Assembly: GCF_964204645.1 (NCBI RefSeq)
Contig: NC_134030.1
Location: forward strand, 3,266,778 to 3,330,777
Length of the DNA stretch: 64,000 nt
Direction: 5' to 3'
From: Tubulanus polymorphus
Taxonomy: Eukaryota; Animalia; Nemertea
Under the pieces are notes generated by a model. That model had not been told where the DNA came from. It ran no database searches and was given only the letters and a program-made list of their open reading frames with translations. Below are positions 6,995 through 63,445 of the stretch, piece after piece. The position numbers and the translations under genes were made by a program. Each line of letters begins with the position of its first letter. Within the stretch, counting starts at the first letter, position 1.

Positions 6995-7167
6995 CTTGGT
7001 CCTCCTCGTTGATCGGACGGACCAACCGCCAACTGTTCCCTGGCTAAACTTCAAACTTCGGAGCCAGTGTGCCCTGGGAACAAAAGCACGGTTTATTGTG
7101 ATCTATCGCGTCCTGGCTGAATAGCGCGGACTGCAACGCGCACTGTGTCTTTTAACCAGACGTACCG

Positions 7168-10170: not shown

Positions 10171-10315
10171 CACAGGGGCTCGTATTTGAAGTTTGAGGGT
10201 GAATAGCAGCTTAGATCATCCAGTATCCCAGTATGTTTTTATACAGAAGTAGCTGGGGGGGGGGGTGGGACATTGGATGATCTAAGCTATTCACCCCAAG
10301 ATACGAGCCCCTGTG
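10171..10315. mobile_element. Foldback/MITE-like hairpin element
   Basis: CACAGGGGCTCGTAT...GCTTAGATCATCCA pairs with TGGATGATCTAAGC...ATACGAGCCCCTGTG. Confidence 0.6.
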
Positions 10316-11259
10316 CACTGAACTACTTTCAAAAATGATTTTGTTCAAGAGTCGACAGAGAGGCCAGACACATTTTTCTTATGCGTATAGTAAATGCGAT
10401 TAGGGACATTACGCAACAGTAATAGGGTAATTCATTTATTATAAAGAATAATTAATTGATCATACAATCATCAGTAAAGCCTACTGTGTAAACTACGCGT
10501 CGAAGTTAATCTATTTCTGATATTGTATCCGAATAACATTGGGTTTCTATAAAGCACCGTAATTCTCACAAAATGAAATCCAGTCTTGAGAATACGACGG
10601 TTTAATCGATTCTCGTAGAGATACGCGTCGTCGCAGTCATCTGCATTCTCTATACGTGCTAAGCAAAATTAGTGTTCTGACCATGAAAGTTGACATTATG
10701 AACCTTTCAGACTTGATTTTTTTTAGGCCGGTAGAGTACAAAAGTCTTCAGGAAAAAATACATCGGGGTCATTAGTGTAGGGGGTTCAGAGATAAGTGGA
10801 AGATTCTGAAATTATTCGGAATTGACGTGACTTGGACAACTGGGCGTGGAGCGGGCGGGAGAACACTAAATTAGAAGCACGGGCAGACCCTCACCCTTAG
10901 GGGAGAGGGCTTCGCCCCTCTTTAAATTATTACCCAATAATGCAGCGGGCAAAATAACTCATGCGGATTTTCCCTACAGTAATTTGTTTGTCAAAACTTC
11001 TTTTCGAGTTGATATTTTGGGGTTTTAGCGTATCAAAATTCTTTTCTACTGAGCTGCAAAGTTGTGGGTTCGATCTTAATCGGGTGCCAGATTTGTTTAA
11101 AGATTAATTCCTGAAATCAATATTGAAAAGGTTAGAGCCGGCACATCCAATAAACCATCCACAGTCGACATGCGCCACGGACAAATGCACTGAATTTTAA
11201 TTTGAATTGTTTCCGTCTTGTTATCAGACAACATGCTCCATATTGAACTGTTAAAATGA

Positions 11260-17126
<5,867 letters not shown>

Positions 17127-40788: not shown

Positions 40789-43700
40789 TTATCCATCGAC
40801 CAGAGTTTCTGGAACTGTATCCTCTACAAGATGAACAGTACAATTATATATCATTCACATTCGTCCAGGTATCAATTTAAAATTGCACCCTGCACCCCCT
40901 CAGACAGTCTGCAGCCTGTGCCCTGTCATTCAATACTTTAATTCTTCCAATTTTTGATCATCCATAGTTCAAATATATCCAAAACTTCCCCTGTGACTAC
41001 AAACATCAGACATTAGAAATTCTTTCATCACATACTCAAAGGCGGATTGTCCAGATTTTAGTGGTACAGGGCTGCAGATAGATTGATATCAGCATAAAAC
41101 GAGAGCTAGAGAGGGATGACATGTATAATGTAAAATCTACCTTCAGTGCTTTGAGGTTCCTCCAGATTTTCCAGTTGATTTGGGGCATTGTCAGTTGCAT
41201 CATTTGGTTCGGCATCATTTGGTTCGGTGATCTCGGTTTCTAAGACCTCATCTGCAGTTGCTTGGGGCACTGTTTCATCTTCAGCAACACCATCTTCAAC
41301 ATATTCAACCATTTCTAAAAACGAACGCGTATTGAATAAGTTTCAACTAAAGTTTTTGCCTTTTTTTCCCAAACAAATGCCCTTTTCATTTTGTGCTACA
41401 TCTAGCGTTGCCTCAGGATCCAAACCGAAATAACTGATACGATTCTGTACAACTTTTTGCACGATTTACCTACCTTCATTAGAGGGGAATCCATTGCACC
41501 ATTTAGCACAGCGATAAGTTCGGTATCCTCCCATTCTTCTCCAGCATGAAGTCTTTTTGTGACATTTCGAATACCATTTAAGGATTGCGTAATACGGTCT
41601 AACACAGAAATACATGCAGCGAACGTATCGACTTCTGTGACGTCTCCATCTTCTACGTATGCGTCTACGCAGCTTCCTCGAACGGTACATTCCTTCGTTC
41701 GATTCCTCTTTCGGTTCCATTTCTATCAAGTAATAAAGATATGCGTTAAGACATAAAATGAGTAAGACCAGAGTTTCTGAAACTGTATCCTCTACAAGAT
41801 GAACAATACAATTATATATCATTCATATTCATGCAGGTATCAATTTAAAATTGCACCCTGCACCCCCTCAGACAGTCTGCAGCCTGTACCCTGTCATTCA
41901 ATACTTAATCATCATTCTTCCAATTATTGATCATCCACAGTTCAAATATATCCAAAACTTCCCCTGTGACTACAAACATCCGACATTAGAAATTCTTTCA
42001 TCACATACCCAAAGGCGGATTGTCCAGATTTTAGTGGTACAGGGCTGCAGATAGATTGATATCAGCATAAAACGAGAGCTAGAGAGGGATGACATGTATA
42101 ATGTAAAATCTACCTTCAGTGCTTTGGGGTTCCTCGAGATTTTCCAGTTGATTTGGGGCATTGTCAGTTGCATCAATTGGTTCGGCATCATTTGGTTCGG
42201 TGATCTCGGTTTCTAAGACCTCATCTGCAGTTGCTTGGGGCACTGTTTCATCTTCAGCAACACCATCTTCAACATTTTCAACCATTTCTAAAAACGAACG
42301 CGTATTGAATAAGTTTCAACTAAAGTTTTTGCCTTTTTTTTCCAAATAAATGGCCTTTTCATTTTGTGCTACATCTAGCCTTGTCTCAGGATCCAAACCG
42401 AAATAACTGATACGATTCTGTACAACTTTTTGTACGATTTACCTACCTTCATTACAGGGGAATCTATAGCACCATTTAGCACAGCGATAAGTTCGGTATC
42501 CTCCAATACTTCTCCAGCATGAAGCTCGTTTGTGACATTTCGAATACCATTTAAGGATTGCGTAATACGGTCTAACACAGAAATACATGCAGCGAACGTA
42601 TCGACTTCTGTGACGTCTGCATCTTCTACGGTCCATTCCTTCGTTTGATTCCTCTTTCGGTTCCATTTCTATCAAGTAATAAAGATATGCGTTATAAAGA
42701 CATAAAATGAGTAAGATCATCTCTGAAAACTAGATTCCACAAACCGGTATTGTCATCTGATATTTCATCTGCCACTTCATCAAGTGAGTTGTTTTCCTCC
42801 GCAGTCTCTTCAGCTAAAATAAACAAATACTTGTATCATTGGGAAAAGACTAAAACAAGTCGGCATCCAGTTGGACAGTGGTGCATAAGTCCAAAAATGG
42901 TCTTAAATCGTAAGACTTGTTAGCTCAAGTTGTTAGATTAGCTTTAGAACTAAGATGATCTAACACTGGTCATAAATCTAAACAATGAGTACGCAACAAG
43001 CCTCAGGTGCCAATTCTACAGTTCCTAGTTGAAAAACTTATTTGAAATTTAAATATCACACTCATCTCAGAACTGGGTTACCGGTATCTGGTCCGGAGGA
43101 CAGCTTTTCTCATTGTGACTGTGATCATTTTATGAGTCACAAAACTTATTTTGGTTCACCTGAAATCACGTTATTGGTTTCCTCATTTTCGGAAAGTGGA
43201 TACAAACACAAACCCTATAAACGTACCATCCTGTTTCGGCATCCTCGCACACCAATTTACACATTTCCTCGCGCGAGTGACGCCCAAAGATTTCCAACAG
43301 ACGGGATTTTTATGACAGCGACGATACCATTTCATAATCGGAAACGATGAAGTGCATACGTACACGCACGATACATACCGCCCACTCCCCGCTCGAATAA
43401 CACGACCTGAAAAATCAACACTAATTTCTAAATGATAGTAAAATAAAGTATTCAAATGATCAGCTTACAATTATTGATAGGTGAAAATAATCACAATCAG
43501 AAGAAAAACTATAAAAGTTAAACGTTTCTACTCTATTTACTTGAGATATTCTCAGTATCAGTAAACAGTTATGTACAGTCGTTCAGCAGAGTTTTATTGG
43601 GTATATTGTTATATGGAATCAACACTTGGATTCAATCAAATGAAATATCGATTAAAGCGATTACATCTCATTTTCATGGGTATAAAACAGTTTTTCGTGC

Positions 43701-46700
43701 AAACGTTTTCGGGATCATACCCCGTCATTAGGTGAAATACATGTGAATCAAATGGAAAAACTACAAATTTGTATAGACTTGTTACTAAAAGTACAATGCA
43801 ACATTTTCTAGAATTTGTTTAGTTTAATCAAAGCCAAATTTGATAGTTTTCTATTTGAATATCGTTATGCATTACGTACGATCAGTTTTCAAATCAACCG
43901 AATTTTCCGTAGCAGTTTCTTCAACCATTGAATCTAAAACAGACAATATATCTTAACACTACACATTTGAATATAAAAGACAAAGTCATTATCGGACTAT
44001 GGGGTCAGTTACTGAAAAGGGTTAGTTAAGTAGAATTTAGACTTCGCTAATGACAACAATCAACTCATTTCACTATATAAATTGTGAAGTAAGATATTGA
44101 AGTGTTTAGGGCAAAAACTAACCTTCAGTAGAGTCAGTAGGGGTTTGTTGAGCTTGAACTGGTTCATTATCATCATTCTCATCTTCAACGACTAAAATGA
44201 AGATAATGTCTGAATACATTGGACACCAAGGAATATACTTAATCAGTTATGGATCTGAGGCTTAATAACCCCACTGCATTTCAGTCAATAAATGGACTGA
44301 GGTTTAGTCAATAACCAACCAACGATTAGTTTACCAACTGGTAAATAACCTTTTCATATAAATGTCAAATAATTTTCTGGTTACAATAAAGGGTCATTCA
44401 TTTATTACGTATGCATTAGGGGAGGGGGGAGGGGTCAGTGCAATTGCGTACTGTAATGCTTAATGTATATGAAAAAATGGCAGATTTTGCGTACAGAGGG
44501 GGGGTTGAAAAATTCAAATTTTATGCGTACGTAATAAATGAATGATCCCTAAAGCTAGTTTAACCCCTAATTAATCGTACCTAAATCAGCAGGAAGGTTT
44601 TCATCATTAGCAGGAAGGTTTTCATCGATTTCTAAACTATCTTCGTCTGCATGTCGTAGTTTACAGGCCCTCGCACAATGATAATATCGTCTCCCGAAAT
44701 TTTTCAGCCAGCATCTCGATCTCATGTGACAAATCTTGTACATTCTGTACAATCTAAACGGTGACATCTTCAAGCAATAGTAAATACACCGGAGGAACTT
44801 TGGTACACGCCTTCGCACAACTACACCTGTATGACAAAAAGATTGACAGAATACAAACAACTCTAAGATGATGGTCGTTCCTACATTCAGGGCGGATCAA
44901 GGGAGCAAGATCTGATCTGAGAAAGGAAATCTGCAGCACTCTAATCAACTCAACCGTCATTGTTTTATTTTTCAATCTTAGGCAGATTTTGATCGGTTTT
45001 CTATCGATTCCAGATTCTCTTCTGGTACATCCACTTCAACCAGAGTGGCATAATTTGTTAACCTGATAGAAGTGGCCAGTAGAGACGGGAGTAATGCGGA
45101 ATCGCTGCTATGCCTATACCGGAATACATTCTATCAGTGTAAATCTGAAAGTAAGAAAATTGCTTACGAGCGTTTTCAGGTTCAACCAATTCATTCTCAG
45201 CTTCTTCATCAGAACCGGCAGCTACAAAACATCAAAATGGCAAAAATCATAATAAATCAAGGTTTTTGATATAATAATGCGGTACGAACAATTCTACTGT
45301 TTACACACCTTTATTCAGATGATAACGACAACGATATAAACATCTGGAAGCGACTCTAAAACGCCTTGAATATTTTGCCCAACACCAATATCTAAAGCCA
45401 CACTTCCTCATCCAATTTTTAGCCTGGATCATGCCCGTATTAAGACATTGAGCCATGCAGATAACAAACTGCTGCCGGCCCGGTGCGGCTGTTATCTCAA
45501 ACAAGAAAATCTTCGAATGAATTTTCATGCGTTTTATGAATATGGACCAAAGTAATGCGCAAAAGCGTTAATAAAGTGCACCAAAATAAATAAAGACTAG
45601 TCAAAGTCTATGTTGTATATATAAAAACCCACAATCTCAACAAAAAATGAAGGAAATATCAGTTACACTGACGTTTCGGATATTACTTCAATCCAGCTTC
45701 AGAGACTTGTTTAAATTACTCATTTACCGGATGAAGCTACGCTAGTAGCAAAAGCTGGTACTTAAAATTAAATCTAGTTAACATTCAAAGTACGACCTGC
45801 CTTCACGTTTAGAGATTTATCTAAAAATCTCTCTTTCAGTTACCTCTACACAACATCTATGAAACATTTCTCTTTTAGTATTTGTTCATCCATGTTGTGG
45901 TTTTTTACATAATAAGTGCAATTTAGTATAGAATATGATATTCACTTTTGTTTATATAGTAAATGCAGCTTGTTTAAACTGGTTTAATATGAATAAATTA
46001 CCTATGAATGAGTTTTCTGGTTCCACTGCTGTCTGCTCCTCATTTGTGTCAATTTCTTTAAATAAAAAATAAATCATCATACATCAAATGTTAGTGTAAA
46101 TGAAAGCATTTCCCATACCCTAGGGTTTTTACTTTGAGTTAGGATGTGGTCACCTGATATGTACAAACAACCCCACATAGCCAGCAAGCGTTTTGATTGG
46201 TTTAGAGCTGGTCATCTGATGCGAACAAATGTAAACAACGCAGTTTACACTAACAACAGCGATACTGAATGCATAGTCAAAGTGCACATTTTGACTCGGA
46301 CCGGTTCTACAGTTATTGGTCATCTTCAGGGACAATAAGGTTATAACATAACTATCTAAAGTATACGTACCATCAATGCGATGTCTACATCTGTACACAC
46401 ATTTGTACGCTTTATATCCAGCTTTACGCGCCCAACAGTATTTACTGTAACCACACTTTATGAACCATTTTGTCGCATAGTATTTAGTGATGTGTAAACA
46501 GTAACGCATACAGGAACGGAATCCATTGACTTCATCGGTCGCTTCATCATCAACTGAAACAGACAATATTTTTCAATGGTTAGCGTTAAAATCTAGTTTA
46601 TGTAATTCATATAAAAAACTCATAATTTTAACGTTCAGTTTCAGAAAACTCTATTCATAATTCATAGTTAAGTTCAGTTTAGTCCTGCATCCTGGTAACT

Positions 46701-49700
46701 TAACTATACTGCTAATTGAATAGGTAAGATTTTAATAATGGCTCATAGAATCAAGTTGAAATGTCAATACTTTCTATGTTTTACTTTGTAATTCTGCGTC
46801 TTTTCTTCGATCGACTTTGACAGACGCTTGTCTGTAGAGACGAGCTGTACTGCCAAAATTGACAAGGTTAAAGCACCAAATATTCTTTCAAAATAAAAGT
46901 TCCAGTTTCACGAAAAGGTTGTAAACGCATAAATTTCGGTTTATTAGCTGCTGATTATTTGTTTCAACTTTTTCATGAAACTGGACCTCGAAGATAAATC
47001 TTACTCAAAGCAAAATTATCAGTGTCACCACCATCAGGGACAGTATCTTCAGTTTCTAAATTTTTATCAATATCCGCTAATACATCAGATATATCGCTAA
47101 CGCGACATTTCATGAAACAAGATGAAAGTTTCGGTCCGAAATATCTCTTCCAACAACTCGTATCCGTCCTACATCTCTTCAGGACCATCATTAACTTTCG
47201 TTTAGTAATTCCTAAACATTTAGTTAAACATCTTAGGCTCAATGTTAAACGAGCATTTTCTGGACCAGCTGAAAATAACATTTCTACAATTACTCCGTGG
47301 AAGAAAATGTATACACGTTGTAACTTTATAGAAATAAAAAAGAGTCTGAAATGTTTAGTAGTTAATTGAATGTTTCAAATCGGTTTATCAAAATAGTCAT
47401 ATATAAAGTAAAGCTGTAGGGGAGATGTTTTAACCTGTGGTCAAATCAAAGATGAAGAGCACTTGAATGAGTTAACTTGATCTCATCAAAAGTATGAGTT
47501 TTCTCTTCTTATTTCCACTAGTGCAGAATAGCTTCATCAGGTGAATTCTACTGATAAAGCTACTATGCACTAGTAGAAAAAGTAGCAAAATCTCATGTTC
47601 TCGATTACATTAATCCATCCCCAAGTTTACTTAAGTAAAGTTACAACTGTCGCGGCAATACAGCGTTTAACGGATTCACAATCGATGATTTGGTTTAGCT
47701 GCAAACTTTTGAAATAAAACAAACATCATAAGATAAATCTTACTCAACGCAACATTATCGGTATCGCCACGACCAGGGACCGTATCTTCAGCTTCTATGT
47801 GTCTATAAATATCTGCTAATATTTCAGATATATCTCCAGGTTTCCGGCTACATTTCACAATGCAAAACATTCTCGGCCCGAAATATCTCTTCCAACAATA
47901 GACATTCGTCCTACATATCTTCATGACCAGGATCAACTTGCGTTTGGTAACTCCTAAACATTTAGTTAAACACTTTATTACAACGCGAGCCTTACTTGCT
48001 GTCGTTTGTCCAATTGCGGTTTCTGATTCTGGACCATCTGAAAGAATAACATTTCCATAATTAATCATTGCGGAAGAAACTGCCTGACGACGGCTAATAG
48101 TCTTTAGCAAAAAACGTCGCGCAAATATATAAACCTTTTACTCAAGAACTTTTCATCTTTGACTGAATTATTGTGGGATTTCTTTCATTCCTTTTACACG
48201 GATATCGTGTATCTTTTCGATTAAGTTATGAATAAATAAAATAATTCCATTTTCTTTTAATCGAAAGATGGTCGATGAAATTAAGGTCGTTGAAATAGAC
48301 AGATATTGCTTAAAACCAATGCATGAAAACATTGTGAAAATACGAAGACAACCGATGACATTTAACAGAATAGAAATAATCTTTTCTTGTGTCTCCGCTG
48401 TTAAATGACTTATCGCATTTCACTGGTGTTTCAGCACATTATAGAGAGTCATGTGGTGCCAGACACAGCTATAAATAACACACGCACACAGCAGGCAACA
48501 GGTAGAACTAAATTGTCTTCATTCAGTCAGTAAGGAGCAAGAAATCAACACGCGCTCAGGTAAGATTAGTTCACTGTCGCTCATTCATAACAAACAACTC
48601 ACAGCAAAATTACCGCATACTTTATGTATCAGACTAAATCCATCGGTTGAATTTTATAAGATGAATTTGAAAACTCATATCTTTAGAAATATTCAAACTT
48701 GCAACTAATCTTATTCATCTGTAAATTTTAATTCTTGATAACGATAATTCACGTCGTATTTTAGATAACTACTTCACCTGCCCAGTTCATCATATACAGA
48801 TATTAGGCACACTGATTACAAGTAGAACGAAAATAGAAAAATATATTATCACTATTATATTTTCATGTGTTTTGCTGAATAAATTTGGACGAAATGACAA
48901 AATTTCAAAATTTTTCAGGATCAAGTCTATAAAGAATCATCATGGTGGTAAAAGTCGGAGAACTTTTCATGTCTAATGAGACCGATCATATGATGCTGAA
49001 TTGTCTGGGTATTTTCATATCCGTGTACTCCTTGTATATAGAACTTAAAGCGTTTAAAGACAAGAATTACAGAGCGTTTTGTGACTTCAATGAACACATG
49101 AGTTGTACCAGAGTATTGACATCAAAGTATGTTTAAAAATAAAATATCAAATTTCAATCCGATCAAAGAAGTCATTAAGAGTGTGATTATCATATTATTT
49201 CATGTTTCTATAGATATGGACAAGGCTTCGGTGTTGTGGAAGTTCTGTTTGGAAAAGAAAGCTACCTCAACGTACCAAATTGCTGTCTAGGAATTGTCTT
49301 CTACTGCCTTCAATTAATCCTGGGTAAGTTAAACTAAAACTAGTCGACCTCGCTAAAGCCGCCCTAATTAAGGATGAATTATTCAAATGCAACTTACGCG
49401 TATAAGTAAATAGAATCGGAAATACAAATTGAGACTCAGTAGAGAGAACTAAAGTAATTTGACAACTGTCAAGGATATATTTTCAGCTTGACAATTTGAA
49501 TAAATCTTGAGTATAGAATACTATAGTTAATGTGGTTTGTATTTACAGGTTCAATAGAAAGTGAATGGGCGATTTATCTGTTGGTTATAACATCGATAAT
49601 AGCGTGTATCGGTTCGGTTTATTTGGGAACCGTTTTATTTGTTATATTGAAAGATTTCTGTCTCGTTTGTATTTGTACGTACATCTTAAACGGTTGCTTA

Positions 49701-52700
49701 ATGTATCTTAACTACCAGAAATATATAGCTATGGATTTCATAGTATCGACACCGACTCAAGCCCCACCCCCACCGGTAATGAACATGCATCCTGAATACT
49801 AGAGTGTTTCCAAGTGTGATCTGATTTGTAATATTTCGTTTATAATTCAATTATCGGATGTCGTGTAATATTTGTACGAAGATTTTGTGAATAACGGTTA
49901 TGGTGATGATAAGTGAACACACTCCCACCAGGTGGCGATACCAGTACCAGCCGATTGAAACTTCATAGAGCAGTATATCATTAAGTACTGATTTGAAGAT
50001 GAAATTAGATTATTGTATTTTTTCGTTAAGTTTTCCACCACAAATGCTGCTAAAACTTGTATTAGTTTAATTGAAAATGAATAAATCATCTAGTTCTATA
50101 TAAGACATAATTCGTAAGTAAATTTTACTTTTGTTTCAAGCGCATTCTAGATCAATGAAGATAAACAACTCAATAAAAGTGAACTAATCTCAAATATGAG
50201 ATAACCACTGACGTAAACACTCTGCGCGTGTTGTAACAATACTACATTAATCCCACACTAAAGCCCGGCGCACACCCTTGCGATTGATCGTATGATCCTT
50301 TCATCGCATGGTTTTATCGCATCATCGTAAAGGTATGCGGTGGCATCCGGAGCCGATTTCATCGCATCATCGCTTCATCGCAACAAATCAAACTTGTTTG
50401 ATATTTTGCATGTGATTTTTCCGTGCGATGAAAATCGTAAAGGTGTGCGGGCTACGCTGTCGATGTTCAGAACGAACATTTTTAGTAGCCAATCGGAATT
50501 AACGATGAAGCAATCACGGGATGTTCAAAATGGCGGCTCAGTCACGTGATTGAATCCAACTCGAGGCCCTCATAAAAAATCGCAAAGGTATGCGGGAATG
50601 ATGCGATTTTCGTCGTGTCATCGCATGCGATGATACGATGACACGATGATCGCAAAGGTGTGCGCCCAGCTTAAGACCGAAAAATCTGAAATTTTTCTTA
50701 AGCAAGCTGATAGTCATCTTCAGGAATACTGTATTCTTGAAGATACAGTTATATAGTATTTCTAAAGATTAGAAAACACTCTATTCCCCAAAGATGACTA
50801 TTTAGAATATAGTCAAATCATAAGATAAAGCATTAGCTCAAGGAAGTATTTTGGACTTTTTCATTCTCAGTGCCATTGATTTTTATATCATCAAATATCA
50901 GATTTCTGCTGTTGTACGGTACTGGACAGTCATGTGGATGTGAGTTGATGGTTTTCTATCAAGGTGACATGTTGATCCCTCTTCATCATAAACTACAGGT
51001 GTTTTACGAGAGAGACAAAAGCCAGGTATAAAACAGCCGTGTGTCTGTGTAGCTATTATTACCACGAGCAACAGCAGCAGCTGTGCTGTCACAGAGAGAC
51101 TGCGGCTGTTCTTGACATTTTAGAGAAATTACTGCTGAATATGAATATCAGCCACACACAAATAGATTGTGAACTGAACGAATTACACAGTTCTACATAT
51201 TCTAACAATTTCAGCTAAAACTCTGTTGAAAACACAGTTTTAATTGGCTTCAAGAAAGTTGAATCGAATTCTTAATATCCTAGTTCAGAATTCTAAACAG
51301 GCAGCAAGAGATTCAATAGACTTGAGAATCAAAAACAAGTGAAGAACCCAGCTCTTTAGTTGTGAGTAAAAATGCGAAAAGGGCTGGTTCCATTTTCATG
51401 GTTTAGACTTAAGACCAGTCTAAGACCAACTTGGCCAACCATTTTTGGATATAAGTCCTGATGTGGAACTGGCCCTAAAGGTTTAGATAAACAAGTCTAA
51501 ATTTACTCCAGGGTCTAGTGTCACGAAAGAGTTAAAGCTTAAAACGGTTAAGTTTAATTCATATCCTCAATGACAACAAGAAGTAACAAACAGTGACTGA
51601 ACAAAAAATTGTGAGTTTAACTTCTTTGTGAAACTGGATCCTTCGTTCTAAACATAGAGACCTCTTACCTTCACTCAGTTCATCATTGCTTTCTTCGTTT
51701 TCCTCTCCATCAGCAGACGGAACTTGCGATTCTTCATCTATAAAAAAAAGAAGAATATTTTGTAATGCATGTGGTTGAGATTGGCTAAGATTGTGGCTAA
51801 GATTGCCACATCAAATAGTCCAGGTTCTGAGTAAAATAAGCAAGACCGCTGCTAATGCTTAAAAACTAACCTTCAGATTGTGGTAAATTGTCTTCGATCG
51901 ATTGTTCCGGTTCGCTGTATTCATCTATAATATACAAACAAAACTTGAAATTAAAGACATGAATGATGATCGGTATTTGGTAATCTTTTATTGGGATGTT
52001 TATCGTAACTATCGCTTCCATCTTGAGTTGTATATTTCAAGTCTGACATGAGAAATCCAATCAGTACTTAGTAAGTCCGATGATGGCTTATAGTATTTAG
52101 CCAAAATTTTGCTCGAAATATATATCATTTTACTAATAGAATTTTTCATTTTTGGCTAAATCTATTGTGGGATTGCTTTCGTCATTCATCTTACACGGAT
52201 ATAGCGTATCTTGTCCACTCATTTCAAGACTGATATTTAATGCAGCGAGATGATGCCCCAAGAACTATACTACATAAAACAAAGGCCGCTAGAATATTCA
52301 TAACAAGTGAAAGACTGTCAAAACAGTACCCACTAAATAGAGTGATAGATATTGCGATTTCTCCTGACGATTATTCAAAAATACTCCAGTTAATATTTCT
52401 GCATATGACTACATTAAGTAGACATACCATTGATTTTGAAGGGTCTGCACTCGGGCAGACATTGGTATACTCTGTATCCGAGAGTTTTCATCCAACAAGA
52501 AGGGAAGAGCCCACACTTTTTCTCGGCGTAAGCAATTTTTGACAGAGTAACATTCGAACATTTATTCATACAAGAATCAAATTTGTCGATAAAATCTGTG
52601 GACGAACAAAAACAGTATAGGAAAATATTGCAAGGCTGCATCTATAAAGCGATCAATACATTCATACGTGTTTGACAGGAGGACATTTCCAACTCAGGGA

Positions 52701-55700
52701 CACAGTTCAACATCTAACCTGAGAACTGTGTAATGTACAGGCATTCTTACTTACATATGAACATGCTGGCCCTGAAAGATGTAGAAACTTGATCCCCTTA
52801 ATAGCCAGGGGCCAGGGGCCGGTTCCATAGACAGGGCTTAGACTTAAGAACGGTCTAAGACTAACTAAGTTCTATAGCCAATCTAACAACTTAAGACCAG
52901 TCTTAAGGTTTAAGACCACTTTTGGTCTTAAGTCTTGACTATGGAACCGACCCCAGTTGCACAGTCGTGACTTAAGTCCAAAAGTGGTCTTAAATCTTAA
53001 GACTGGTCTTAAGTTGTTAGATAGGCTAAAGAACTAAGTTGGTCTTAGACTGGTCTTAAGTCTGAGCCATAACTATGCAACCGGCCCCAGGTCTCATTTG
53101 CAAGATACAATCAATTCTAGCATAGGTATGGAAGTAAGCCGAGGACTGCCTGCGCGTACCAACTTTTAATCATTCCCTTAATCATGAATATACGTATGCC
53201 AAATACATAGAATTATACATTTGATAAACAGACAAAAATATATCGAAAAAAGATCCAATACTTTTGAAACATGTTTCAGGTATTTTCAAAACAAAGTTTC
53301 CATGCAATATTTATGAGGAATCCTGGAAATGAAAACATGCAATTCTAGGACACAATTGTGGGAGCAAAAAAAGAGACAAACCTTCTTCATCAGCTGATGG
53401 CGAATTTTCCTGTTCTTCCATTTCAGAATCTTCTGTTGGGTTTGCTATCAAAAAAGCATAACCAATCATTATTTACTGATCTACAGGGTCCAGTTCCACA
53501 GTTCTGAGTTAAGATTTGACCATGGGTTAAAACATTGAAAATGAACTAACTTTAACTCAGAGTTAACTCTAACTCACAACTGTGGAACTGGGTCCTGATC
53601 TACTAATCGAAATGAAAAGCAAACACTCACAATTTTCAGAGAATTCATTAGATTCAATGATGTTCCGGTCATCGGGATATTCAGTTAACAAAGCAGTGGT
53701 GACAACTTCTTTCATATCGAAATCTTTGTGACCAATGCATCCGATTACACAACGAATCGCTCTAAAACCTGCCTTTTTGATCCAACATGCACGCGATGTA
53801 CCGCATTGAGCTATCCATTTCAATATCTTACGCTTTGATCTTCCGAGACATCTCAATAAACAACGAGTATAACCACGTCTCCCACGTCTCCCACATCTAC
53901 GGCGTCTACGTCTACGTGTTCTTCTACGTCTACGGGTTCTACGTCTACGTCGTCGGGTACTTCTTCTGCGTCGGTATCTACGTCTACGGTACCTGCGTCT
54001 GCGGACACGGTATCTACGCCTGCGGACACATCTTCTTCTGCGGACACGGTATCTACGCCTGCGGACACGGTATCTTCTTCTGCGGACACGGTATCTTCGT
54101 CTGCGGACACGGTATCTTCTTCTGCGGACACGGTATCTACGCCTGCGGACACATCTTCTCCGTCTGCGGACACGGTATCTTCTTCTTCTGCGGACACGGT
54201 ATCTTCTTCTGCGGACACGGTATCTACGCCTGCGGACACATCTTCTTCGTCTGCGGACACGGTATCTTCTTCTTCTGCGGACACGGTATCTTCTTCTGCG
54301 GACACGGTATCTTCTTCTGCGGACACGGTATCTTCCTCTGCGGACACGGTATCTTCTTCTGCGGACACGGTATCTTCGTCTGCGGACACGGTATCTTCTT
54401 CTGCGGACACATCTTCGGTATCGTCTTAGTGGTGAAGTCTTGGATGAGGCTAACTCTGGTATCATATCACCTGTAATCATTGAATGACATAAACAAATAT
54501 TCAAATGAAAGACAACAAAAAACTAGTAAATAACTTTTTATATATTAAAACTGGATCCAGTTTCAAAGTTCTTGGCAAACATTCACGGTTGTCAGGTCAT
54601 GAAGTATCTTGAGTCGAAACATTGAAAATTTACTATTTCCAAGTAAACGAACTAAACTAAGGACCGCACAACTGCATCCAGAACTGCAAAATTGAGTCTG
54701 AACTGCGGAACTGCGTCCAGAAGTGCGGAACTGGGTGCAGAACGAACTGCGGAACTGAGTCTAGTTCTGCAGAACTGGGTTCTGTCTTATCTATTTATAT
54801 CAGTGCACGTTCGTGCAAGGTGCATCACATAAATAACAAAGTATGAATGATTCTAGTTTAAAACTAACCTACCTTCAACTTTGGTCATTTCCATATTGTC
54901 AATCATCAACCGATTTTCAATACGTTTTCGACAGCTTTTAAAACAATGATAAGCTTTCTTGCCGATTTTACCGATCCAACATTGTAGATTAATATTACAC
55001 TCGATTCCCCATTTTATCAATTTCAATCGACCCAAGTGGGCGCATCTGCCCAAACATTTCACGAAGTGGCTTAAATTGTCTTCATTGAGTGCAGCAACAA
55101 ATTCTAAATGTGCGAGAGTGAATTGTACATGGCGCGCTACCCATAAACAGCTTACAACAATCCACAACCAAAACCCAGTGCAGTGATAAGTAGATAATTA
55201 CAGTGTTCCAGTTCTACGGTTCTCACTCAAGAGTTAAACACATTCGAAACAAACTAGTCCAAACTGAAACTGACCATCAACTCAACAATCACACCTAACA
55301 TCAACTTTCAAGTCAACTTTCACTTAAAATTTTAAGTCAAATTTAACTTCAACTCTGAAGACACAGTGAAATTCAACTATAGAGCGAATTTCAACTCAGA
55401 AATTAGAACAATGGAACTGGATACTGTGTTATACTATAATATATACTGTTAATGTGATTGTGTGCTATAAATATGATTACATAATGTGTTTTTATCTTTC
55501 TCGTGTCATTGAACTGTAACATTAAACTTCATCGCTTCGAAGATTTGTACCCATCACTAATAATAATGTTGTCTCTAGTGTAACATGAAACATGTTGTAT
55601 TTCTAGAAGTTTTCACTCACAGTTCAATGGCCACAAAAGTAAATAAATTGGGATCAGTAGCTCAAAAGGTGATTAGTCAACCAATGGATAACTGACATAC

Positions 55701-58700
55701 AGATAATAACAATTACAACTGGCTTGTTACTACCATATAGTATTTATCCAATGATTAACATAAACCAACTTTTAAGCAACCGCCCCTCCCCCGTCATATT
55801 GATAAAGTTCTGACCTTGAACGGCAGTGACCTCCACACTACCATGACGGGAGTTCATCTCATTGTCTTCAACGATGAACAAACACCTGCTGACGCATTTA
55901 GCAGCTTTACGCCCAATTTTTCTCAACCAACATTTGTAATCGGTGCGGCATTTCGCAAAGTATTTCAGCATTTTCCAGTGACTTTTTTTCAAACATCGTC
56001 CCATACATTTCAGGAATTTGTGCTTATTTTCTTCATTAAGTTCAATGAGTTCCGAATCTGTAACAAAATCAATATTTTTCACTCATATTCTACACACTAA
56101 GAATCAACTCATTCACTGTCGCCATAGTTCTTCCCATTTTCAACTATCTCGTAGTTGGCACTGAAACTATTTAGAGAATGAAGCTGAGTTTGTTCACACT
56201 ATCTGCCAATCATTCGTGTGTCCCAGTACAACTATCTTAGCAGTGAATAACCCCTTGAGGGTTTTAACTGCGTCCAGAAGTGCGGAACTGGGTGCAGAAC
56301 GAACTGCGGAACTGAGTCTAGTTCTGCAGAACTGGGTTCTGTCTTATCTATTTATATCAGTGCACGTGCGTGCAAGGTGCATCACATAAATAACAAAGTA
56401 TGAATGATTCTAGTTTAAAACTAACCTACCTTCAACTTTGGTCATTTCCATATTGTCAATCATCAACCGATTTTCAATACGTTTTCGACAGCTTTTAAAA
56501 CAATGATAAGCTTTCTTGCCGATTTTACCGATCCAACATTGTAGATTAATATTACACTCGATTCCCCATTTTATCAATTTCAATCGACCCACGTGGGCGC
56601 ATCTGCCCAAACATTTCACGAAGTGGCTTAAATTGTCTTCATTGAGTGCAGCAACAAATTCTAAATGTGCGAGAGTGAATTGTACATGGCGCGCTACCCA
56701 TAAACAGCTTACAACAATCCACAACCAAAACCCAGTGCAGTGATAAGTAGATAATTACAGTGTTCCAGTTCTACGGTTCTTGTTAAAATTTCACTCAAGA
56801 GTTAAACACATTCGAAACAAACTAGTCCAAACTGAAACTGACCATCAACTCAACAATCACACCTAACATCAACTTGACACAGTGAAATTCAACTATAGAG
56901 CGAATCTCAACTCAGAAATTAGAACAATGGAACTGGATACTGTGTTATACTGTAATATATACTGTTAATGTGATTGCGTGCTATAAATATGATTACATAA
57001 TGTGTTTTTATCTTTCTCGTGTCATTGAACTGTAACATTAAACTTCATCGCTTCGAAGATTTGTACCCATCACTAATAACAATGTTGTCTCTAGTGTAAC
57101 ATGAAACATGTTGTATTTCTAGAAGTTTTCACTCACAGTTCAATGGCCACAAAAGTAAATAAATTGGGATCAGTAGCTCAAAAGGTGATTAGTCAACCAA
57201 TGGATAACTGACATACAGATAATAACAATTACAACTGGCTTGTTACTACCATATAGTATTTATCCAATGATTAACATAAACCAACTTTTAAGCAACCGCC
57301 CCTCCCCTGTCATATTGATAAAGTTCTGACCTTGAACGGCAGTGACCTCCACACTACCATCACGGGAGTTCATCTCATTGTCTTCAACGATGAACAAACA
57401 CCTGCTGACGCATTTAGCAGCTTTACGCCCAATTTTTCTCAACCAACATTTGTAATCGGTGCGGCATTTCGCAAAGTATTTCAGCATTTTCCAGTGACTT
57501 TTTTTCAAACATCGTCCCATACATTTCAGGAATTTGTGCTTATTTTCTTCATTAAGTTCAATGAGTTCCGAATCTGTAACAAAATCAATATTTTTCACTC
57601 ATATTCTACACACTAAGAATCAACTCATTCACTGTCGCCATAGTTCTTCCCATTTTCAACTATCTCGTAGTTGGCACTGAAACTATTTAGAGAATGAAGC
57701 TGAGTTTGTTCACACTATCTGCCAATGTATTCGTGTGTCCCAGTACAACTATCTTAGCAGTGAATAACCCCTTGAGGGTTTTGATAGCTTCTGGAGTCAA
57801 TTTTCCCAGGGTTTCAATAAATATACGCCCAAAACCTTTAAGAGGTTTTGAGAAGGATCAACTACTCATGGTGGCAGAACTGAAACTATGAGTTACATGT
57901 AGTGGCAATGGTAGTACAACCGGAACTATGAGATATTTCTATCAAATTAAAACATGTTAAAATGAATTAATTGAAATTGTATTGAAATAACTACCTTCTG
58001 GTTCACTATTCAGTTCGATGTCATTTTCATTTTCTGATTCCGGTTCAATTTGATTTTCATCAACTTCTAAAAACAAGAATGCATTTAATTGAAAACTGAA
58101 CTGGTCATAAGTTGATGATCACCTCGTGAAACACTGAACAAAATTCTGCGGCAAAACAACATAGTTACTGAAGAATAATGGACTTCCTTGACCGCAACTT
58201 TGACAAGCAGAGATTCGATCCTCTCATGCTGGCAAGCGAGGATCGACCAGGTGCACCAGTGGTCATTCTTTTGAGCTTCGATTTCTTCTATATTGCGATC
58301 AAAATCAAATAATTTTTTCTCTGGAGTCAATTAACTATTGTTCATAAATACATCAAACTCAAAGAATATCATAGCAAAGTCAAGAATATCTGTTTAGAGG
58401 CTTGTATGAGTTGAAAAATCCAGAATTCGAAGTTGATTGAAAATAAATGTATGACTGACGCCTGCTGGCGGCTTAAGCTCGATTTATGAGTTGTGTGTCG
58501 GAGTTAAAGATCTTTTTCATAGAAGCATCTAGAAAAGACTGATGTCTGAATTGTAACAGGATTACTAACCACGGAATTTATAGATGCACTTGTTGAGACA
58601 TTGAAGAGCCTTCCAGCCAAGTTCTGACATCCAGCAAACCCTATTAATTTTACACTTTGAGAACAACTGCATAGCTTTATACAGATCTATACCACAGCAC

Positions 58701-61700
58701 CAGGCCATGCAATTCACATCTAAAACAACAGCCAGTAACAATCATAATTCAAACCTAATTCATCCCACGGAGAAACTGAGTTTGCATGCGTACAGATTTT
58801 GATTTGTGACTGTTCAGGGCTGCCAACCACTATAATAGTATTATCAGCAGTAAGTTGAAATTTGTTGAGTAATATTTCATCGAAATATAAAAGACAATGC
58901 GATCAATAATCAATAGGGGCAAGAAAAAGCCTCAATTTCTGTTATACATCGAATGTTGAATCAGTATTTCTCAAGCCAAAACCACGGAAAAGTTGGCAGC
59001 TCTCTGTTCGTCAGTTCATCGTCTGTGGATATACATGTATCTTGGTCTGCGATGATGGGGGAATAATGACAGAAGAAAGTGTTCATTTCATTCATGTATC
59101 ATGCAAGAAATGAGAAATAGCTAGTAGGGACTTAGATATGAAGGTAACATTCTATAATGAGTACACTTGTAGCAACCTAAATACAAGCTTAGCAAGATAC
59201 ATAGATATCAAATATTCAGGGAATGAGAAATGCTCTTACCTTCATCATTGTTTTCCTCAATTGTAGGTAAATTGTCAAAACCATCTGTTAATATAAAAAT
59301 AAGAAATTCTTACACTATCACAATTTGAAATCGTTATCATTATCATTTTCATGAATTGAAAAATTTTGAGATAAGAGTTTAGGGTAGTGAAAGATATTTG
59401 TAGAATGCTTGGAATGTCACAATAATGAAATATCTTGTCAGTTACACACAGATTGGTCGATGTTTACCACTGGATAAATATTGAAAATTCAGCTTTAATT
59501 TTAACTCATCTTCTGAAACTCTTAAACAGATTTTTCAGCAACTGACCCCTGGTATAGAACTACCTTTTCTTATTAACCATGTTGTCATACACCTTGGATA
59601 GCAAAACATTACTCCCAATCCAGCTAGTTTCAACCAACACTTGAAACTTCTTTTGCATTTTACACATTCATGAATTACTTTGAGTATTTTCTGCGGCAAA
59701 CATTTTGACATGCAGCAAATGAATCTTAAGGTGCGAGAGTATGGTCCACTTTTAGGTTCAGCAACTACAGAAATATAGGAAAAATGTGCCAGCACAGTAA
59801 CTGTCTACGCAAGCAAGATCGAAGTTTTTGAAGAAATGTTCTATCAAAGCTTTTTTTGTGCTCTCGCAATTTTCGAAGTTACAAATGTGAGAATAATTAT
59901 AACATGCATCCGGCATTTAACAATGCAGTATTTGAAATGTCTAAAATAAACTGGAGAAATTCATCTATTTATGAATCCCAAAAACAAACTATGGACATAC
60001 AGCAGACTGCACTTGCCTTGGATCTTGCGGGACCAGGCAAGGAAGCAAGCAAATTTGGGGGCAGTCGGAGTGGCGAAGGTTGTCAGTCATCTGATCACAA
60101 ATTGGAGCAGGAAAATTTCAAAAATTTTATCCAGCAGGGCATGTGATAATCGAAGGCAGTATTTAACTGTATGATCATATTTTGTGACTGGGTCAATCCG
60201 AATAAAACACTGGATCCGGTTCCATAGTTGTGGCTTAGAGTTAACTCGGAGTTAAGATTAGTTCATTTTCAATGTTTTAACTCGGGGTCAAATCTTAACT
60301 CACGACTGTGGAACCGGGCCCTGTTGTATCAACTGTTATATATTATAACTCACCCGTGGTGACAAGAGCCTTGCGTTTAACGTAACAACGAGGGTGACAG
60401 AATAATGTTTTCATGCCAGTTCGTTTCAGCCAACACGGGAACCAGTAACGACACCTCTTGAAATAGTGAATCATTTGTATCTTCGGTCGTCCTAAACACT
60501 TCGCCATACACTTAATGAATTTATATTTACGAAGGGCACTATCATCGGTGATCGCTTCTAATTCATTGGAAGACTCTTCTAAAATCATAAATTGAAAGAA
60601 GTGAAATCATAGAAGATATACACATTGTAGTTGAAACAAAGTGTGCAAAATATCATGGGAACAAGTACCAACTGCTTCAAACTGTAATCAATTGGGATAA
60701 GCGATTTCAGTTAGATACCCCAGTAATGTAAATTCAATAGATATTCCATTGCAAAGGCTCAAAGATTTGCATTTTGTAACTGTTAAGAAGACTGGTAGTA
60801 CATTGCAGGTCAAATTGATGACAAAAAATACACGCTTTCGTTACTAGTGCATAGTAGCTTCATCAGGTAAGACATTTGTACTTTTGAGTGAAGTACTTTT
60901 ATAATGGATTCAAGTTGAAACCCTTGGAATTTGATTTCTTTTCTCTGATCAGGACTATGGGCTCTTTATTTTATGGTTTTAAACACTATAGAAGGGGAGC
61001 CAAGACATTAGTTTGACTGGGTATTTAGAAGTGCTACCTGGTGTCTGCGCATCAGTGATTTCTAAAACAGAGTCATCCATAGCAGAAATGCGACGAATTT
61101 TGATACAACCTCCTAAACAGTTCAACGTCATTTTAGTCAGAGCTTTAAACCAACATAGCACCCTGCGTCTGCATATCTGGAAAACAGAAACACTCAGTTC
61201 AGGTACATTCTGTAACACATCTATATTCAAAATCATCAGAACATCGAAATTGTAGTTTAATCGAAAGAACTAGAAATTATTCTGATTTTGAGAGTATTTC
61301 GATATTTTTGGGAGAAGTTGAGCTCTTCAAAAGAGTAGAAACTACTCTCAAATAGTAGTCGTATTCAGGTCTGTGTATGATGTAATTAATCACAAGTGTC
61401 TTAAAGAGCAATCTGTATTTATTCTGAATAAGGCACTGTATATGGAAAATGATAAAGATAACTGACCTTGACTGCGTGACGAGCGACGATCATTGATCTG
61501 ACACCGCATCTCACCAAACAACGCAGATATCCATTCATAGCAACTTGATTACTGAATGCTTCATCTAATATCAGCGATAGAGCCTTCTCATCATCGGACA
61601 TCACCATTAATTCCTCCTGATTATCGGGCTGCTCCTGATCATCCTCTGTGCTGTCAGGTTGCTCCTGATTGTCCTCTGTGTTGTCAGGTTGCTCCTGATT

Positions 61701-63445
61701 GTCCTCCATGTTGTCAGGTTGCTCTGGATTCTCTGCATTATTGGGCTGCTCCTGGTTGCCCTCTGTGACATCAGGTTGCTCCTGATTTTCAATTTCAGTT
61801 GCTGCGTCTATGAAAATACCAACAAAACAAATTTTACACACCCAACATTTTCTCAGAATTGCAGAACAAACAAAATCAAAAATCGATATTCATGAACTTT
61901 AGGATAGCGAGCAATTCTAATAAAGGGGATCAAAAACCATCAGAGAATTAGAAATGATTTTAATCAAATTAATCTGTACCTGTTTTGTCGACAGCATTCT
62001 CAATATCACGAGGGGTCTGTTCAGGAATGTTGTTCGCTTCTGAAGAAATTTGTTCATCTTTCGACAATCCTATACATGAACACAGAAATAGATAATAAAA
62101 ATACAAGTCTCAAGACTCTGTGTAGATAAATGAAAAAGAGTCAAAATCTTTATGAGATAGAATCCATTAAATTGAAACGAAGATTTGGCACTTGACAAAT
62201 ACAGCCATCATCAAATGGAATGATGGTCAATAACCAACTCATTGTGGTTTCATTTTGATAAATCTTACATGTAACACACGTTAGCACATTATTAGAATTC
62301 AATTGTGGCACTTTCGCAAGGCTACAGGGCATGTCTCAACCATAACACTATTCTTTCATAACACTAGCATCACACGGTGGAAAGGTGACCCAAACATGAG
62401 TAAAAAAAATCACTTTGTTATGTAAAACTTAGTTTAAAATAGAAGCCCCAAAACGTCAGACTCCAGCTCTCGTCGTCAAGCAACGATCATCGACGGAACA
62501 ATGGCTTCTGCTTACCTGTTCCAGCTTGAGGAGGTAATTCGGCCTGTCCATCGATAGCAGGACCAGGAATATAGATCAAAGTCTCTTCGTGAATGTCTTC
62601 CTCGACAAGGGGTTCATTTTTATCGTTTTCTGGAAGATTGAAAAGTTTCAATTAATAAAAATTGAATCGAATTTAGTGCCGGTGCCATTTATTTCCGCAT
62701 CCACTCGACCTTGAGTTTGCTGAACTAGAACACTGGAATAGGGCCCGGACCACCAGCTTCCGGGTTGTCCAATCACCGCATTCGTTAATTTTTTTCCTAT
62801 AAAATGAGCGTTATTTTATTCTGATAGGAAAAAACAAATATGCTCTCCGGGTACGGTGACGCCCAAAAATTATCTAAAACAATGCAAAATCTACCAAAAA
62901 CAAAATATGATTGTAGAAATCGAGGACTCAATTCAGTACTCTGAGTCTGAGTCAAATCTTTGACTCAGGAACTGCGTGCACCTCAAATAAGAACTCGGGG
63001 CCTGAGACTGACGTGCCGGAAATAAGAAATAATCACATCGTGGTAAAAATGCGTCATTTTTGCCATACACTATATTTTAATTATAGAAACAGGCCCCAAC
63101 GACCACGACTGACGAAGGCTTTTACGATTTGACAGAAAATTCTATTTCAGTTCATGCAGAAAGATGATACATAAACGAATCGTTTAAAAGTTAAAAATTA
63201 TTAAAACACTACAATTCACGTTGTACAAAGTGCCGAAAAAAATCATGAGTAAGTCTAAAGAATTATTGTTCATGTATATTCTGTCATTAAAACCCCGGCA
63301 CGAGGATTGTGCCCTCCAAAAACAAAGAAAAAAAAACTAAAAACAGAAATCATCATTATGAGTGAAATAAAATCTACGGCTTACCTGCCGAGTGACCCCC
63401 TGTGACCAGGAAGAACCCCAACACAAGAACGTAAAGTACGTTCAT
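40789..63445 (-). CDS. Uncharacterised secreted multi-domain precursor: signal peptide, 18 six-cysteine modules (mostly cationic) and acidic spacers (~2026 aa, 35 coding exons)
   Basis: Hand-spliced exons, 5'->3': 63385-63445 ([20 protein letters not shown]), 62516-62629, 61980-62069, 61467-61807, 61038-61176, 60354-60578, 59564-59764, 59240-59284, 58570-58719, 57995-58066, 57331-57573, 56430-56660, 55815-56057, 54873-55103, 53631-54470, 53382-53444, 52428-52595, 51871-51924, 51669-51737, 47744-48037, 47005-47268, 46371-46553, 46002-46055, 45309-45488, 45168-45221, 44581-44826, 44123-44191, 43880-43933, 43227-43406, 42745-42813, 42447-42668, 42114-42287, 41474-41722, 41141-41314, 40789-40823 ([11 protein letters not shown]). 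All introns are GT-AG, the frame is open throughout (6081 nt), and all introns are phase 1 except one. Only one signal peptide and one terminal stop were found. Confidence 0.82.
40799..42716. repeat. ~0.96-kb tandem duplication (40799-41766 / 41767-42716)
   Basis: Both copies start ACCAGAGTTTCTG(G/A)AACTGTATCC and contain a spacer exon and a module exon. Confidence 0.92.
41474..42668 (-). CDS. Polyprotein modules M17 and M18 with duplicated acidic spacer
   Basis: M17: [44 protein letters not shown] (42447-42668). M18: ...[23 protein letters not shown] (41474-41722). Confidence 0.88.
43227..43406 (-). CDS. Polyprotein module M16
   Basis: [43 protein letters not shown]. Confidence 0.87.
44390..44549. 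mobile_element. Harbinger/Tourist-like MITE with TAA flanks
   Basis: TAA|AGGGTCATTCATTTATTACGTA...TACGTAATAAATGAATGATCCC|TAA. Confidence 0.75.
44581..44826 (-). CDS. Polyprotein module M15
   Basis: [45 protein letters not shown], followed by a DENLPA duplicated acidic tail. Confidence 0.88.
45309..45488 (-). CDS. Polyprotein module M14
   Basis: [47 protein letters not shown]. Confidence 0.87.
46371..46553 (-). CDS. Polyprotein module M13
   Basis: [45 protein letters not shown]. Confidence 0.88.
47005..48037 (-). CDS. Polyprotein modules M11 and M12 (older paralogous pair)
   Basis: M11: [41 protein letters not shown] (47744-48037). M12: [42 protein letters not shown] (47005-47268). Both share a DIS..LADI...EDTVP.GDTDN tail. 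Confidence 0.88.
48942..49802 (+). CDS. VKORC1: Vitamin K epoxide reductase complex subunit 1-like protein (182 aa), nested antisense in the polyprotein intron 48038-51668
   Basis: Exons 48942-49126, 49214-49323 (110 nt) and 49549-49802. Motifs: loop cysteines [37 protein letters not shown], redox-active CxxC ([10 protein letters not shown]) and hydrophobic TM segments. A probable non-coding first exon ends at 48559 (CAG|GTAAG), with TATAAAT at ~48470. Confidence 0.95.
50262..50671. mobile_element. PIF/Harbinger-type MITE with TAA target-site duplication
   Basis: TAA|AGCCCGGCGCACACCCTTGCGAT...ATCGCAAAGGTGTGCGCCCAGCT|TAA, with internal ATCGCA/TGCGAT sub-repeats. Confidence 0.8.
52428..52595 (-). 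CDS. Polyprotein module M10 (weakly charged)
   Basis: [45 protein letters not shown]. Confidence 0.87.
52812..53089. mobile_element. Two abutting, oppositely oriented family A MITEs
   Basis: CAGGGGCCGGTTCCATAG...ACTATGGAACCGACCCCAG is followed directly by an inverted copy ending ACTATGCAACCGGCCCCAG; matches 3753-3896. Confidence 0.75.
53631..54470 (-). CDS. Polyprotein exon with protamine-like (RRRRYRV)n tract and module M9
   Basis: 840-nt phase 1-1 exon. A 21-nt repeat encodes the Arg/Tyr/Val tract, followed by [45 protein letters not shown]. Confidence 0.82.
53860..54420. repeat. 21-nt coding tandem repeat (GACACGGTATCTTCTTCTGCG)n
   Basis: Seen directly; open in several frames. Confidence 0.95.
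54709..57782. repeat. ~1.55-kb tandem duplication (54709-56265 / 56266-57782)
   Basis: Near-identical exons and introns with a few substitutions and intronic indels. Confidence 0.92.
54873..57573 (-). CDS. Polyprotein modules M5-M8 (two-exon unit duplicated in tandem)
   Basis: M5 and M7: [45 protein letters not shown] (57331-57573, 55815-56057). M6 and M8: [10 protein letters not shown](V/L)[34 protein letters not shown] (56430-56660, 54873-55103). Confidence 0.88.
58570..58719 (-). CDS. Polyprotein module M4 (7 Cys; absent from the ORF track)
   Basis: Hand translation: [50 protein letters not shown], bounded by TTTTAG| and |GTTAG. Confidence 0.85.
59564..59764 (-). CDS. Polyprotein module M3 (8 Cys)
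   Basis: [45 protein letters not shown]. Confidence 0.85.
60354..60578 (-). CDS. Polyprotein module M2
   Basis: [45 protein letters not shown]. Confidence 0.88.
61038..61807 (-). CDS. Polyprotein acidic (NQEQPDNxED)n pro-region and module M1 (split across two exons)
   Basis: [21 protein letters not shown]|[24 protein letters not shown]. Confidence 0.85.
63385..63445 (-). CDS. Polyprotein exon 1: signal peptide
   Basis: ATG...[21 protein letters not shown]|GTAAG: hydrophobic core with small residues at the likely cleavage site. Confidence 0.8.

Follow-up and report, generated by a model that had tools for sequence, protein, structure and literature searches.

A lineage-specific arginine-rich repeat tract in a likely secreted, six-cysteine-module protein of the nemertean Tubulanus polymorphus

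Results

The window is the whole stretch of 64,000 nucleotides analysed here, taken from contig NC_134030.1 of the nemertean Tubulanus polymorphus. A gene model of 35 exons was built by hand at 40789..63445 on the minus strand. It encodes 2026 aa with 18 modules and acidic spacers, and 33 of its 34 introns are in phase 1. The first exon (63385..63445, minus strand) encodes a hydrophobic N terminus that was judged by eye to be signal-peptide-like. The host protein is likely secreted, and the secreted multi-module precursor of the original prediction was supported by this N terminus and by the 18 modules. Only five joins of the model (exons 13-14, 14-15, 13-15, 15-16, and 16-18) were confirmed in a sequencing run. 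A possible additional short acidic exon behind a CAG acceptor (59046-58964, minus strand) was omitted from the model; a good donor was not found. Elsewhere in the window, positions 1-7100 (minus strand) hold what we take to be a fibrillar collagen-like gene with Gly-X-Y exons plus a VWC-like exon. The exons at 11750-15730 (plus strand) presumably resemble an Abl-interactor gene. The last exon of a PP2C-like CG9801 homolog lies at 22363-23322 (minus strand); its identity to a protein of Tubulanus polymorphus, a palaeonemertean ribbon worm, is 100%.

The main feature of the host gene is a tract of 184 aa encoded at 54426..53875 on the minus strand. Its composition is R133, V20, Y19, C5, G3, T3, and S1, that is 72% Arg, and the tract alone carries a net charge of +133. 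The expectation of an Arg-majority tract of about 185 aa with Tyr, Val, and Cys was thus borne out. The predicted 21-nt repeat was also recovered by TRF (period 21 nt, 20.1 copies, 84% matches, 53986-54410). The regular array (54004..54426, minus strand) consists of 20 heptads, mostly RRRRYRV, with the variants RRRRRCV and RRRRCV. It begins with unit 1, RRYRRCV, and each of the following 19 units is 18, 21 or 24 nt long. Therefore, a change of copy number preserves the frame. Judged by its low unit diversity (8 types among 19 units), the array is young and homogeneous. The degenerate part (53875..54003, minus strand) encodes 43 aa, of which 34 are Arg (79%) from five different Arg codons; all six Arg codons are present across the tract. 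In general, Arg occurs in runs of 4-7, a Tyr recurs about once per seven residues, and there is some Cys. AF2 with single-sequence input gave no confident fold for the array (pLDDT about 30-40). The mean hydrophobic moment at 100 degrees was 0.22 for the heptad versus 0.54 for helix 2 of module M9, and the heptad repeat is not an amphipathic helix. R-x-[KR]-R is a furin-type cleavage motif, and 56 of the 60 such sites in the whole protein lie, overlapping, within the tract. The tract adjoins M9 directly, with no acidic spacer between them.

Read data from four public runs of one study (X1-X4), none of which is recorded as RNA, were compared with the window. X1 acts like DNA, with an even depth near 32 and a sequence identical to the window over 53571-53985. 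The RNA nature of X2 was inferred from GT-AG spliced joints, which X1 lacks, and all of the splicing support comes from X2. The tract and M9 are encoded together in exon 15 (53631..54470, minus strand; 840 nt, phase 1/1), and both of its joints are spliced in X2. Upstream, intron 14 (54471..54872, minus strand; 402 nt, GT-AG) was removed at the joint 54873->54470 with a depth of 3420. Exon 14, which carries M8 (54873..55103, minus strand), is bypassed in part of the spliced contigs: the joint of exon 13 to exon 15 (55815->54470) has a depth of 6289 and that of exon 13 to exon 14 (55815->55103) a depth of 4133. Downstream, intron 15 (53445..53630, minus strand; 186 nt, GT-AG), within which lies a high-copy inverted-repeat element (about 53484-53598), was removed at the joint 53631->53444 with a depth of 13187. 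This joint leads to exon 16 (53382..53444, minus strand), an acidic spacer. All four joints are GT-AG. The X2 contigs are unbroken and free of differences from the window at 54472-54382 and 53985-53631; a contig of 410 nt joins the degenerate part of the tract, M9 and exon 16. Within the degenerate part, 53985-53875 is also covered by an X1 contig. The tract is therefore retained at both ends in spliced RNA. The repeat had been predicted to be in frame with both splice sites and with M9, and this was confirmed by the acceptor at 54470, the donor at 53631 and the frame open into M9. The proposed check of exon inclusion and frame in spliced sequence thus succeeded at both exon ends.

About 54 of the 184 tract codons, at both ends, are contained in unique X2 contigs, and the middle 130 codons lie outside this coverage. 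Six joints internal to the repeat were found in X2, all shifting by 42 nt and in frame. Inside the array, the best acceptor scored 1.0 and no upstream donor reached 0.8, with model medians near 8. The DNA depth of the X1 repeat contig is 240 versus 31.7 (7.6x), and the assembled copies number 6-7. The assembled array length was therefore judged consistent. The contig depth of exon 15 is about 10,000-13,000 in X2, about 11 in X3 and 0 in X4 (same sample code), and such depth cannot rank expression. Exon skipping was also observed. Three X2 contigs go from exon 16 to exon 18 (loose end mapped to 51909-51924), and exon 17 with the weakly cationic M10 (52428-52595) is absent from some X2 transcripts, as is exon 14. 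Combinatorial module sets are allowed because the exons are phase 1.

Short Arg leaders were confirmed at three other modules. They are the basic leader VVVRRRV of M15 (44804..44824), a leader of 10 residues at M17 (42601..42630) and one of 19 residues at M18 (41628..41684), all on the minus strand; the last exceeds the leader of its duplicate M17. Since M17 and M18 are duplicated copies that are nearly identical, their leaders do not count as independent origins. The claim that Arg leaders expanded repeatedly thus stood for the leaders themselves and was weakened as to their number of origins. The duplication at 41141-42668 includes M17 and M18 plus spacer exons. Another tandem duplication of about 1.5 kb lies at 54709-57790 (M5-M6 / M7-M8), with 1494 of 1505 aligned bases identical. 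The depth of its junction contigs in X1 is 17 versus 32 for unique DNA, which suggests that it is present on one haplotype only. Unit 1 of the array resembles the module-start motif Y-x-R-C of M1, M9, M17, and M18. Slippage probably enlarged a short basic leader, of the kind seen at M15-M18, into the present tract.

The reading frame needed testing because the +1 frame of the array is an acidic repeat, (EEDTVSA)n, that resembles the spacers of the gene and has candidate phase-1 splice sites. It contains no stop over 190 codons, and about 40% of its residues are acidic. A phase-1 AG at 54424 and a GT at 53993 are present, EDTV occurs three times in the real spacers of the gene, and at the DNA level the unit is matched best by EDTV-type spacers in the +1 frame (16/21). 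It is nevertheless extremely unlikely that the repeat serves as an acidic spacer through an acceptor at 54424. X2 splices at 54470 and continues through 54424 without a joint, and a 91-nt X2 contig crosses this position intact. The acceptor scores -7.6, lower than all 34 acceptors of the model. The acidic frame runs into stops at 54428 and within M9, and the spacer match of 16/21 was equalled or exceeded in 52 of 300 shuffles. When the Arg peptide was recoded with the codon usage of the gene, the +1 frame contained 34% D/E versus 40% observed, and 37 of 2000 simulations reached the observed value. Conversely, recoding of the acidic peptide gave 31% Arg in the shifted frame versus 72% observed, with stops in 2000/2000. 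In the true spacers, the shifted frame has 69 stops over 371 codons and an Arg content of 13%. For the most part, the acidic reading is therefore a by-product of the Arg codons. The frame of M9 is fixed independently by its 50% identity (23/46) to Owenia modules. Present use of the acidic frame is thus excluded, although the array may have originated from an acidic spacer by a past frameshift. Parsimony placed five substitutions among the units. Read in the Arg frame, four of them leave the residue unchanged; the acidic frame has one such silent change and the third frame has none. The silent excess in the Arg frame (4/5 versus 25% expected, P=0.017) is based on five events, ordered by hand, within a homogenising repeat. 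On this sequence evidence, the Arg tract is apparently under selection.

Module M9 (53737..53862, minus strand) has the pattern C-x3-C-x14-C-x5-CW-x10-C-x3-C, a net charge of +11 and a predicted four-helix bundle (AF2, four helices, pLDDT 84). All of the 18 modules share this Cys pattern with small spacing variants; the core of M9 is 42 aa. In the module alignments A1 and A2, the six Cys at fixed spacing, the CW and a Gly are invariant. A profile of 15 modules was searched against 1.84 billion representatives and matched 39 proteins at E<=0.001, with a best E of 3e-122; the match P0083 (E 5.7e-4) is probably spurious and was retained in the counts. The named sources among 20 looked-up homologs are Lineus, Owenia, Lingula, Ciona, Clavelina, and Oscarella. 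Those of Lineus, Owenia and Lingula scored best among the named homologs, with Lineus at the top, and the pairwise E of M9 against the Owenia modules is 8e-16. Lineus longissimus LOC135487723, Owenia fusiformis CAH1800560.1, Lingula anatina LOC106172416/420, Ciona LOC100178289 and Clavelina LOC143469179 contain the same C-x3-C...C-x5-C[WY]...C-x3-C module, and in this group a signal-peptide-like start often precedes tandem copies of it. By sequence, M9 belongs to a six-Cys four-helix family common to Lineus, Owenia and Lingula. Some further homologs give the impression of being protist-like, and the family probably reaches protists too.

The homologs differ from the Tubulanus protein in that the Arg tract is missing and the modules are less cationic and Lys-based. 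The tract was absent in all 41 relatives examined, in which the maximum is 7 Arg per 20 aa and the longest run is 3. The median net charge of the modules is +10 in Tubulanus (n=18) versus +2 in homologs (n=101, many of them repeated, non-independent copies), and the R:K counts are 74:99 and 91:613, respectively. The Lingula modules are weakly cationic. Fusions were found to trefoil domains in 4/40 homologs and to saposin B in 1/40; both are partners in mucosal and membrane-active proteins. A homolog fusion to a chitin-binding-like domain was judged by eye. The module tree (62 rows x 48 columns) had too poor a resolution for ordering events.

Pfam searches with eight exon products gave weak matches only, beneath the curated cut-offs. 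The 279-aa exon product gave none at E<=1, a test that low-complexity filters weaken for protamine families. NCBIfam gave one weak match in 15. Pfam matches on multi-module homologs (RalF_SCD, DUF2119, and others) were rejected as summed-repeat noise with zero passing stretches. PDB sequence searches with the module and the tract returned no matches, and Foldseek with the module returned none at E<=0.001. When the module structure was compared with regard to a saposin-like or circular-bacteriocin four-helix fold, the best Z was 4.3 and NKR-5-3B had a Z of 3.7 (rmsd 2.2 over 46 residues), which is within background. No significant fold match to the module appeared in the PDB and viral structure sets, and this does not establish a new fold. 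The ESM Atlas gave no usable feature match, and its structure rows were under the naming threshold. Searches of Pfam, NCBIfam, PDB, folds and accession literature yielded no function for any member of the family. Six homolog accessions were unnamed in the non-subscription literature searched, in which a description of the tract-bearing gene was not found either. The family is apparently undescribed, and a lineage-specific Arg tract on it is real.

Cephalopod protamines contain Tyr. The tract resembles protamines, which are Arg-rich according to PMC12216123, in its clustered Arg (133/184, 72%), its runs of 4-7 and its Tyr and some Cys. In contrast to a small nuclear protein lacking a secretory signal, it is 184 aa in strict heptads, lies within a protein of 2026 aa whose start is signal-peptide-like, and is spliced in frame to neighbouring exons. 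Therefore, the tract is protamine-like in chemistry, yet not a protamine. Another likeness is to the myticalins, which in excerpts of PMC5577615 have a secreted, linear, Arg/Tyr-rich cationic region, anionic companions, basic cleavage sites and a phase-1 intron; the dibasic repeats of molluscidins (same excerpts) are also similar. A signal peptide (by eye), cationic region, basic cleavage site and anionic region are all found in the Tubulanus precursor in repeated form. However, mature myticalins are 23-42 aa, Pro-rich and accompanied by one matching anionic tail (PMC5577615, excerpts), whereas the tract is 184 aa, devoid of Pro and unbalanced in charge in cis. In place of a single peptide of 23-42 aa and the conserved signal consensus of myticalins, the gene encodes this tract, 18 Cys modules and a different N terminus. 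M9 itself resembles the ascidian turgencins in its six non-adjacent Cys, cationic charge, helical tendency and CxxxC near the N terminus (PMC7024374, in part). Turgencin A is an unstable helix-loop-helix of 36 aa with CXMAC/KKXGG motifs (same partial source), whereas M9 has a 42-aa core predicted as four helices and no KKXGG. Alignment A1 lacks KKXGG throughout, with cores of 40-44 aa in place of a peptide of about 36 aa with both motifs. The predicted helix order of M9 is compatible with the turgencin disulfides C1-C6/C2-C5/C3-C4, which is not proof. The Cephalothrix mucus peptide ORF|035733, described in PMC12846013 as cationic with six Cys, could be a family member.

Discussion

Including the tract raises the net charge of the precursor from -11 to +122. 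The spacers balance the modules only, and therefore an outside polyanion is needed for the tract. The proposal that the tract pairs with the acidic spacers found no support in these charges. Cationic peptides are stored with anionic propieces or spacers in myticalins, centrocins and strongylocins (excerpts of PMC5577615 and PMC10608444), a design that the net -11 without the tract fits. A clean series of convertase-released heptapeptides, which had also been proposed, is doubtful, since clipping at the 56 overlapping sites would yield heterogeneous Arg-rich pieces.

We favour, at a probability of about 0.45, a tract that acts as a disordered defensive polycation in secretions and binds microbes and acidic mucus. 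The signal peptide would direct the precursor into secretory granules. There, the acidic spacers would neutralise the 18 cationic four-helix modules in the manner of the anionic propieces of antimicrobial-peptide precursors, and the +133 of the tract, unbalanced in cis, would be held by a polyanion in trans. After release, the tract would probably be clipped at many polybasic sites, with some fragments remaining joined to M9. The tract or its fragments would bind LPS, teichoic acids or sulfated mucus, concentrate M9 there and disturb membranes as protamine does. The gene-wide shift to positive charge, the trefoil and saposin B fusions of homologs, the silent-change excess and the RNA joints at both ends were counted in favour of this reading. 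On the other hand, the non-amphipathic heptad and a family of no known function with weakly cationic Lingula modules were counted against it. Because of those Lingula modules, the family may not be antimicrobial.

Tubulanus and Owenia are tube builders and Lingula lines its burrow, but Lineus builds no tube. A structural block of tube or mucus, in which sulfated or phosphorylated polymers form coacervates with the Arg/Tyr tract and the modules are structural, is possible although unlikely; Tyr/DOPA or the five Cys of the tract may add cross-links. Its repeated Tyr, about every seventh residue, its Cys, and the origin of the best-scoring named homologs in Lineus, Owenia and Lingula agree with such a block, and yet the top homolog is from Lineus, the non-tube-builder. 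Mussel and tubeworm adhesive or coacervate proteins are likewise repetitive, cationic, Tyr-containing and secreted; they are mostly Lys/Gly/DOPA-rich with phosphoserine or acidic partners. The excerpt of PMC9705477 gives evidence on both sides. Arg-rich chains phase-separate more readily than Lys-rich chains, but coacervates of salmon protamine and hyaluronan dissolve at NaCl concentrations from 80 mM to 3 M. Seawater falls within this range, which makes coacervation in its simplest form less plausible. A longer chain that carries Tyr and has sulfated partners could behave differently from protamine-hyaluronan. The tract is also dispensable in homologs (0/41 carry one), and DOPA state is unreadable from sequence. 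The literature searched on tube and gland terms contained no evident tube-protein papers for Tubulanus, and a search for Arg/Tyr coacervates found nothing relevant.

A near-neutral minisatellite expansion of a basic leader or cleavage cassette, tolerated, cut up and without a role, would account for the young, homogeneous array with its 8 unit types among 19, the 56 furin-type sites and the absence of the tract in the relatives examined, and the host gene is duplication-prone. We consider it quite unlikely in view of the silent-change excess, the use of all six Arg codons and the older degenerate part that is still 79% Arg; an unbalanced +133 block in a secretory protein is also unlikely to be cost-free. 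Still less likely is a cell-penetrating arm, whose poly-Arg would bring a toxin-like M9 into the cells of prey or predators, or would bind nucleic acid. Cellular uptake of poly-Arg is established and no acidic spacer separates the tract from M9, but about ten Arg suffice for uptake and the tract has 133. Nemertean skin and proboscis glands do secrete peptide toxins (PMC6410017, PMC12846013, and PMC11768458, each in part). However, M9 showed no similarity to any solved toxin in the sequence and fold searches, and polybasic cleavage would detach most of the tract from M9.

Returning to the defensive polycation, a wider extension of it is rather unlikely, though worth stating. The module family would be a class of surface-defence peptides, one Tubulanus module would have acquired a natural, secreted super-protamine arm for its anchorage or delivery in seawater, and phase-1 exon skipping and copy-number change would tune the cocktail. 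The module family across spiralians, ascidians and a sponge merits its own description.

Protamine-grade Arg usually marks nuclear proteins. Here the host is an animal protein that is likely secreted, and the tract is four to five times as long as a protamine. If active, it would offer antimicrobial, delivery or underwater-adhesive applications a natural polycation that tolerates salt. Proteomics with trypsin would miss such tracts, since trypsin shreds them. As a minor observation, the short high-copy element of intron 15 (53484-53598) is MITE-like with terminal inverted repeats and recurs in the window at about 60220-60320 and at 30489-31055; thousands of contigs map to it.
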